Positions 21,619-22,035 of a stretch of 64,000 bases of DNA are shown in pieces. The position numbers and the translations under genes are program-made. Below the pieces are notes generated by a model that saw only the letters and a program-made list of their open reading frames with translations, did no database searches and was not told where the DNA came from. Source of the stretch: Escherichia phage RB49. Numbering within the stretch: position 1 is the first letter of the stretch; the number at the start of each line of letters is the position of its first letter. The stretch lies in the sequence record NC_005066.1; one strand, 5' to 3'.

Positions 21619-22035
21619 TTAGAGAGATTCGGTAAAGGTACGCGCGATAACGTCACGCTGCTGGTCTGGAGTCAGACTATTGAAGCGCACCGCGTAACCA
21701 GAAACGCGAATTGTAAGCTGCGGGTACTTCTCAGGATGTTCAACAGCGTCCAGCAACATTTCTCGTAACAATACGTTAATATTCAAATGCTGACCACCTT
21801 CAACAACCGGAGCACCATTATCTACAATGACAGGACGGAAGCTAGTTGTGTGCAGTGCCAGCGAATCGACGTCTTCGGCGGTGATCACATGGTCTTCTGC
21901 GAAAGTTTTACTAACAATTACTTTAGCGCCGATCAGTGCTTTCGGTTCTGATACCAGAATCATAGGCGCGAAGTGTCCACCGATAATAGTACCTTTATGC
22001 TCACCTTTCATGATTTGAATTGCTTTAAATTCCAT
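21619..22035 (-). CDS. autonomous glycyl radical cofactor (GrcA/YfiD-like)
   Basis: 138 aa; C-terminus [51 protein letters not shown] is near-identical to enterobacterial GrcA as recalled, including the RVSGY glycyl-radical site. Confidence 0.85.

Follow-up and report, generated by a model that had tools for sequence, protein, structure and literature searches.

The ORF at nt 21619 – 22035 (minus strand) of the window, i.e. the entire 64,000 nt stretch of Escherichia phage RB49 (NC_005066.1) analysed here, encodes Vs.6, which is probably a phage version of GrcA (YfiD), the autonomous glycyl-radical cofactor that rescues oxygen-damaged pyruvate formate-lyase (PflB) of the host. To judge by its sequence, the gene is already known as the Krischvirus orthologue of T4 vs.6, whose product (UniProt P13316, GRCA_BPT4, 'Autonomous glycyl radical cofactor') was formerly called Y06I, and a first-pass annotation of this DNA had correctly stated that T4 carries a homologue. 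The finding is not new, because the RB49 product is matched exactly by an existing entry, the T4 orthologue has been characterised, and more than 1,500 phage homologue records exist, many of them annotated. As first noted, it therefore matters little. In all, 1,579 phage records contain a homologue, among them T4-like phages, T5-like phages and jumbo Erwinia and Vibrio phages. Many of these, including many Krischvirus records, already bear the annotation 'autonomous glycyl radical cofactor', and vs.6 is annotated in Phi1 and JSE. RB49 was among the phages studied by Nolan et al. (2006), who listed vs.6 with the conserved ORFs of T4-like phages and noted its match to Gly_radical (PMC1524935). 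Spare-part function has been validated for two proteins only, YfiD of E. coli and Y06I of T4 (Andorfer et al. 2021, PMC8683613; PMC13450708); both take up a glycyl radical from the PFL-activating enzyme, PFL-AE, and restore the activity of O2-cleaved PFL (PMC8683613; PMC13450708). The in vitro validation of Y06I is credited to Wagner 2001, as cited in PMC8683613.

The coding sequence runs from ATG to TAA (138 aa plus stop in the ORF list), with ends at exactly the positions given by the first-pass annotation, and an exact-sequence look-up matched the product to RB49 Vs.6 (NP_891670.1, UniRef Q7Y459). A strong Shine-Dalgarno sequence, AAGAGGTGA (nt 22039 – 22047, minus strand, read from the sequence), is placed 3 nt ahead of the ATG and overlaps the stop codon of an upstream 41-aa ORF (nt 22046 – 22171, minus strand), which lies between vs.6 and the co-oriented vs.8 (nt 22171 – 22662, minus strand; both from the ORF list). 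These three genes abut or overlap and are probably co-transcribed; the order vs.8 / 41-aa ORF / vs.6 is shared with Phi1, JSE and JK32. The two upstream genes are unrelated and match PHROG 1488 and 13848, both of unknown function. Ten nt past the vs.6 stop, a terminator scan and RNA folding revealed an intrinsic terminator (nt 21575 – 21609, minus strand), consisting of a stem-loop (nt 21585 – 21609; a G+C-containing stem of 9–10 bp and a 5-nt loop) followed by a U-tract. Its predicted folding energy of -16.4 kcal/mol corresponds to z = -4.2, and none of 200 shuffled sequences was equally stable. It closes the vs.8 – ORF100 – vs.6 unit, and the equivalent site is already annotated as a terminator in the records of G2248, G37-3 and GEC-3S. 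A promoter scan gave no convincing candidate directly upstream of vs.6. With its own Shine-Dalgarno sequence, stop codon and terminator, Vs.6 is a small standalone protein and not the tail of a large glycyl radical enzyme. Plus-strand ORFs of 73, 54 and 63 aa that overlap vs.6 were taken as spurious antisense frames. The locus is 98.5% identical at the nucleotide level to RB49 and Phi1 records, which places the window in the RB49/Phi1 group of Krischvirus, and the 64-kb window corresponds to 31.6–97.3 kb of Phi1.

That the protein is of the GrcA/YfiD type, as the first-pass annotation proposed, was borne out by profile and structure searches. The Pfam Gly_radical family (PF01228) matched residues 78–119 (2.3e-16), the NCBIfam model 'spare_glycyl' (TIGR04365) matched at 1e-38, and the structure of E. 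coli GrcA/YfiD (6owr) was matched at 7.8e-33 by residues 37–138. The match to PHROG 1209, the phage Vs.6-like proteins, was full length (7.9e-51; residues 3–138 against positions 1–121 of the 121 in the profile). Among glycyl radical enzymes, the C-terminus of PflB matched at about 8e-27 and the others at 1e-11 or weaker, indicating a domain of the PFL type. This C-terminal domain (residues 78–138; nt 21622 – 21804, minus strand) comprises a beta-strand, the Gly loop and a helix at the C-terminus. Pairwise alignment, one of the checks named with the original observation, showed that 55 of its last 61 residues (90%) are identical in E. coli GrcA and 52 of 61 in T4 Vs.6; over the last 62 residues the identities are 88.7% to GrcA and 79% to PflB, and a tblastn search with PflB gave about 80% over PflB residues 700–760, the PDB sequence matches agreeing. 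The C-terminal sequence quoted in the first-pass annotation was correct, and its description of an 'almost residue for residue' match to GrcA is slightly overstated, as the two proteins differ at six positions (V86I, R90L, T93M, E95L, K99E and E124D).

The motif of the radical site is intact. RVSGY occupies residues 110–114 and the longer RVSGYAV residues 110–116, and the predicted radical site within it, Gly113 (codon GGT, nt 21697 – 21699, minus strand), is equivalent to G734 of PflB and G102 of GrcA. This glycine, the loss of which had been named as grounds for doubting the assignment, is retained and is invariant in both alignments made (A1, 21 homologues; A2, 63 homologues). Across the 63 homologues, RVSGYAV is conserved along with 24 invariant C-terminal positions, G113 included. 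An AF2 model of the RB49 protein has a mean pLDDT of 80, rising to 89–94 over residues 91–130. Foldseek aligned the model to the NMR structure of YfiD (6owr; E 7.7e-7, TMt 0.74), and superposed it on Gly-radical domains from further glycyl radical enzymes with an rmsd of 1–1.7 Å over about 44 residues. RB49 Vs.6 scores below the equivalog cutoff of TIGR04365 (132.4 bits against the 170 required), as does the T4 protein (151.1 bits), E. coli GrcA scoring 234. Since the validated T4 protein fails too, this cutoff is fitted to the bacterial proteins and says nothing about the function of phage members; it mirrors the bacterial N-terminal sequence. At residue 86 (window nt 21780), RB49 Vs.6 has Ile (NIN), whereas Val (NVN) stands there in Phi1, in phiS and in the bacterial GrcA and PflB sequences compared. 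The 27 best-matching Krischvirus records all differ from RB49 Vs.6 by one residue, and Ile86 may be the single residue that sets it apart from the majority allele.

The N-terminal half (residues 1–77; nt 21805 – 22035, minus strand) is homologous to that of bacterial GrcA, as judged from alignment A1 and from hhalign. Comparison of the phage and bacterial N-terminal halves by the latter gave a probability of 94.7% (E 6e-8; 29% identity over 58 columns). The bacterial set consisted of GrcA sequences taken from genome loci and included two PFL fragments (L062 and L068); the result held. Relative to bacterial GrcA, the RB49 protein has an insertion of about 10 residues within residues 19–37. Two motifs, KAIQIM.GEHKGTI and (A/V)(K/R)VIVSKTF, are conserved among the phage N-terminal halves, and AF2 predicts strands of moderate confidence at residues 4–8, 17–20, 38–41 and 66–69. 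On these profile comparisons, RB49 Vs.6 is best regarded as a whole GrcA, homologous over its full length, and not as a Gly-radical domain joined to an unrelated partner. A MAFFT alignment had hinted that the N-terminal half resembles PflB residues ~620–697 (e.g. MHGRDQKGAV), and an origin from the PflB segment that precedes the Gly-radical domain was considered and rejected. A profile–profile comparison with 48 PflB sequences found no similarity to PflB residues 541–696 (probability 0.1%), so the likeness in MAFFT is an alignment artefact. In YfiD the N-terminal half is disordered in solution, yet it promotes binding to cPFL and installation of the radical (PMC8683613), and its assistance in cPFL binding and activation is also described in a later review (PMC13450708).

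If Vs.6 acts like its characterised relatives, oxygen would cleave the PflB of the infected host at its radical glycine, and Vs.6 would bind the damaged enzyme with the aid of its N-terminal half. Host PflA would install a radical on Gly113, within RVSGYAV, and the C-terminal domain would replace the lost Gly-radical domain of PflB, restoring the conversion of pyruvate to acetyl-CoA and formate. The phage would benefit by a maintained fermentative supply of ATP and acetyl-CoA, together with formate, in gut bacteria infected under micro-oxic conditions. The dependence on host enzymes is suggested by the complete genome of Phi1 (97–98% identical), in which nothing but NrdG (E 0.02) resembles PflA and nothing but Vs.6 resembles PflB. 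Since Phi1 offers nothing else, the phage must rely on the PflB of its host and, most likely, on its PflA as well. Encoding neither of them, it supplies the consumable part only. Two points weigh against the assignment: the N-terminal half, a region of importance for the binding of cPFL by YfiD, shares only 29% identity with that of GrcA and carries an insertion, and the six substitutions fall in the strand/helix region ahead of the Gly loop. The function predicted by homology with the T4 and E. coli proteins is nevertheless considered sound. In the searchable literature, no in vivo role or phenotype turned up for any phage vs.6/GrcA mutant, and nothing specific that joins vs.6 or YfiD with phage physiology or homing endonucleases.

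The same features could be read differently, with Vs.6 as a decoy or modulator that titrates PflA or occupies PflB, or as a protein that mainly serves TdcE or another host enzyme of the PFL type. The exact PflA recognition motif is present, the phage-specific N-terminal half (HKGTI, VSKTF and the insertion) differs from that of GrcA and could alter the choice of partner, and AF2 suggests some folding of this half as against the disorder reported for YfiD (PMC8683613). This reading is nonetheless improbable, as PFL regains its activity in vitro through the T4 orthologue (PMC8683613) and the near-perfect conservation extends over the whole domain that faces the catalytic site, and is not limited to the PflA-binding loop. 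Conservation of this extent argues that the domain must function inside PflB, and rescue of the host enzyme remains the preferred interpretation.

The first-pass annotation also pointed out that the phage carries the anaerobic ribonucleotide reductase NrdD and its activase NrdG, and both are present, on the minus strand: nrdG at nt 619 – 1128 (Pfam Fer4_12/Radical_SAM) and nrdD at nt 2525 – 4387 (Pfam NRDD/Gly_radical). Between them (nt 1340 – 2424, minus strand) are two ORFs of 182 and 179 aa, which have no Pfam match and match only PHROGs of unknown function (8242 and 14838). From this it was suggested that the protein could support anaerobic metabolism or dNTP synthesis after oxygen exposure. 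In one reading, it would be a spare domain for the phage's own NrdD, activated by the phage's own NrdG, both being encoded in the same window. Moreover, the radical site of RB49 NrdD (residues 592–596; nt 2609 – 2623) is also RVSGY, the pentapeptide found in PFL and GrcA, and Nolan et al. (2006) speculated about a role in nucleotide metabolism from the Pfam match (PMC1524935). Such a direct role is highly improbable. Beyond RVSGY, a BLASTP comparison of Vs.6 with the NrdD of the window found nothing in common (E > 1), and as the two share this motif alone, the idea of an NrdD spare part is unsupported. The Vs.6 domain is, as given above, about 80% identical to the C-terminus of PflB, and the T4 orthologue acts on PFL (PMC8683613). 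Direct repair of NrdD by Vs.6 is thus unlikely on sequence grounds, because the domain is of the PFL type and spare parts are known for formate-lyases alone (PMC13450708, a 2026 review of glycyl radical enzymes). A putative indirect connection through the formate produced by PFL is plausible, as most of the class III ribonucleotide reductases that have been characterised use formate as their reductant, and it is regarded as the cofactor for NrdD in T4 (PMC4493059).

The high C-terminal identity to GrcA had been taken to suggest a relatively recent exchange with an enterobacterial host. The nucleotide data refute this for RB49, and point to it in T4. Over the C-terminal 62 codons, RB49 vs.6 and E. 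coli grcA are 73.1% identical (45% at third positions), and the Nei-Gojobori proportions are 0.77 for synonymous differences (pS, saturated) and 0.09 for non-synonymous differences (pN). At conserved degenerate residues, 23 of 55 codons are identical, compared to 20.8 expected from phage codon usage, i.e. the number expected by chance. The best match in E. coli genomes was about 74%, and fell on pflB rather than grcA. No bacterial nucleotide donor was found among the best 80 of at least 589 confirmed relatives (one genome per species), for which identity reached a maximum of 76.5%, with a median of 70%, even where 57 of 61 residues agreed; as only these 80 were compared, a rare donor species could be missed. 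There is also no step in G+C content between the N- and C-terminal halves of the gene (44.7 and 47.8%).

A recent acquisition of the C-terminal domain from an enterobacterial grcA, grafted onto a phage gene, is scarcely credible in view of these values. It would account for the 90% protein identity to E. coli GrcA, and for the 57/61 match to a GrcA encoded by a contig labelled 'Vagococcus', and grafting of this kind does happen. In T4, 181 of 185 nt of vs.6, in a tract that begins with the EGGQH codons, ends with the stop and is the only one of its kind in the gene, are identical to E. coli K-12 grcA (nt 7558 – 7742 of NC_000866, locus L002, against nt 4067 – 4251 of the grcA locus, L003). The T4 sequence has a pS of 0.066 to E. 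coli grcA, and a G+C content of 46.8% in the tract, which is host-like, against 34.5% in its N-terminal half. The Gly-radical module of T4 is, by these measures, a recent host-to-phage replacement, unlike that of RB49. The protein identity seen in RB49 is not unusual, since it does not exceed that between GrcA proteins of distant bacteria, those of E. coli and Vibrio metoecus agreeing at 57 of 61 residues with a dS of about 1.4. The likeness of RB49 Vs.6 to GrcA is better explained by strong purifying selection on a domain that presumably has to fit host PflB and PflA, because synonymous sites are saturated, pN is 0.09 and codon sharing is at the level of chance. An ancient transfer of the domain between a bacterium and a phage may have occurred. 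For domains under extreme constraint, a protein closely matching that of the host is therefore a poor sign of recent transfer, and tests of synonymous sites settle the question, since the same domain is anciently diverged in RB49 and 98% identical in nucleotide sequence in T4.

The 'Vagococcus' sequence is itself peculiar. Among the best 80 of at least 589 loci, no other protein comes as close to the C-terminal domain of Vs.6. The sequence derives from a 253-kb contig of 'Vagococcus sp. WN89Y' (NZ_JBQPOM010000029.1; nt 1001 – 1183 of locus L005), which encodes a typical enterobacterial GrcA of 127 aa (MITGIQITKAANDNLL...). This Firmicute-assigned assembly may be contaminated or misassigned.

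A modest, testable lead comes from the sister phages of RB49, in which vs.6 alleles are mosaic and linked to homing endonucleases. Among 57 Krischvirus records, Vs.6 was at least 95% identical to the RB49 protein in 39 and 80–95% identical in 18, of which seven were examined. Six of the seven (JK32, phiS, JSE, G37-3, LF73P4 and FL04) carry a homing endonuclease gene with Pfam NUMOD4 and HNH_3 domains immediately on the 3' side of vs.6 (nt ~1690 – 2560 in each of the loci L085, L086, L087, L088, L090 and L091, respectively). These genes are free-standing, 528–594 bp in length (175–197 aa), and represent at least three alleles. The insertion site lies past the vs.6 terminator and ahead of nrdC.11, at the equivalent of nt ~21551 – 21572 of the window, and the genes are absent from the RB49 window, Phi1 and G2248, which have the endonuclease-free allele.

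Next to the insertion lies a polymorphic tract (nt 21555 – 21867 of the window, minus strand), comprising the 3' 250 nt of vs.6 and the intergenic sequence, which was delimited by blastn, sliding identity and alignment; the mosaic stretch measures 250–300 nt and covers the half of vs.6 that encodes the Gly-radical domain. The six endonuclease-carrying phages are 96–100% identical to RB49 from vs.8 to about codon 55 of vs.6, fall to 50–80% from nt ~21867 to the insertion, and return to 96–97% beyond it, in nrdC.11. RB49 carries the majority, endonuclease-free allele of the tract. The start of the diverged sequence varies by lineage (nt ~21856, 21833, 21829 and 21787), the LF73P4 tract contains an RB49-like patch, and a short patch is common to JSE and the endonuclease-free G2248. 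The pattern is as would be expected from co-conversion with the endonuclease combined with divergence of the target site, and such a pattern is described for the mobE and segB loci of T4. An E. coli origin of the endonuclease-linked allele of JK32 was considered and rejected, its best match being 69% to pflB. In phiS, the allele (nt 1735 – 1917 of L086) uses the same codon as the window (nt 21619 – 21804) at 7 of 42 conserved degenerate residues compared to 15.9 expected from codon usage (P ~0.002, uncorrected for seven comparisons), and its Nei-Gojobori pS of 0.98 is beyond random saturation.

A second free-standing endonuclease (HNH_3 and AP2 domains, 191 aa) occurs between the endolysin gene and vs.8 in JK32, phiS, JSE, FL04 and G2248 (nt ~240 – 817 of L085, L086, L087, L091 and L089, respectively). 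The corresponding region of the RB49 window (nt 22663 – 22718) has in its place a spacer of only 56 nt that contains a GC-rich hairpin, AACGGGGAGA...TCTCCCCGTT.

The sister phages thus have at least three different endonucleases and, associated with them, at least four patchwork alleles of the module that are deeply diverged although the genomes are otherwise 96–100% identical; in T4, host grcA has replaced this module. From these alignments it is possible, and is proposed here tentatively, that the DNA of the vs.6 Gly-radical module is a recurrent target of recombination, with endonuclease traffic driving its diversity. If so, the endonuclease-free allele of RB49 is predicted to be sensitive to cleavage, and if the endonucleases do cut the Gly-radical coding sequence, the traffic of selfish elements, and not metabolism, would be what diversifies vs.6. 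Some of the endonuclease-linked alleles (RISGYATRFNALT..., with AGHHL or RGSQHL in place of EGGQHL) might have altered or lost compatibility with PflA and PflB, and the mosaic alleles form a natural series of variants for probing which residues these two enzymes require.

These loci resemble those of the free-standing homing endonuclease genes of T4-type phages (mobE by nrdA/nrdB, segG by gene 32), in that the HNH gene adjoins the 3' end of vs.6 and is flanked by a diverged mosaic tract in a Krischvirus background that is 96–100% identical. They differ in that the RB49 window is without an endonuclease at this site and cleavage of vs.6 is putative. Compared with PflB (PDB 1h16, 2pfl) and TdcE, Vs.6 is without the 10-stranded barrel and the catalytic Cys418/Cys419, but its 'REMLLDA' stretch is PflB-like and not like that of E. 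coli GrcA; the 18-residue tail motif, on the other hand, is of the GrcA type and not of the PflB type (LTKEQQQDVITRTFTQSM). E. coli GrcA/YfiD (P68066; PDB 6owr; TIGR04365) is a full-length homologue with the same predicted fold, and a 14-residue core of the Gly-radical domain is identical in RB49 Vs.6. The phage protein departs from it in the N-terminal half, with its low identity, its insertion and its score below the equivalog cutoff, and in genomic setting, as vs.6 lies in an early-gene cluster of a lytic phage, outside host control of the FNR/ArcA type. The closest characterised relative is T4 Vs.6, which likewise is a small standalone protein, is encoded next to vs.8 in the early region on the regB/denV side, and has the phage-type N-terminal motifs KA.QI..G.HKGTI and VSKTF in common with RB49. 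The two are 58–63% identical overall, and 85% (52/61) or 85.5% identical over the last 61 or 62 residues. The RB49 protein is 18 residues longer, with the insertion in its N-terminal half, and the 3' domain of T4 vs.6 was copied recently from E. coli grcA, whereas that of RB49 is anciently diverged, with synonymous sites at saturation.
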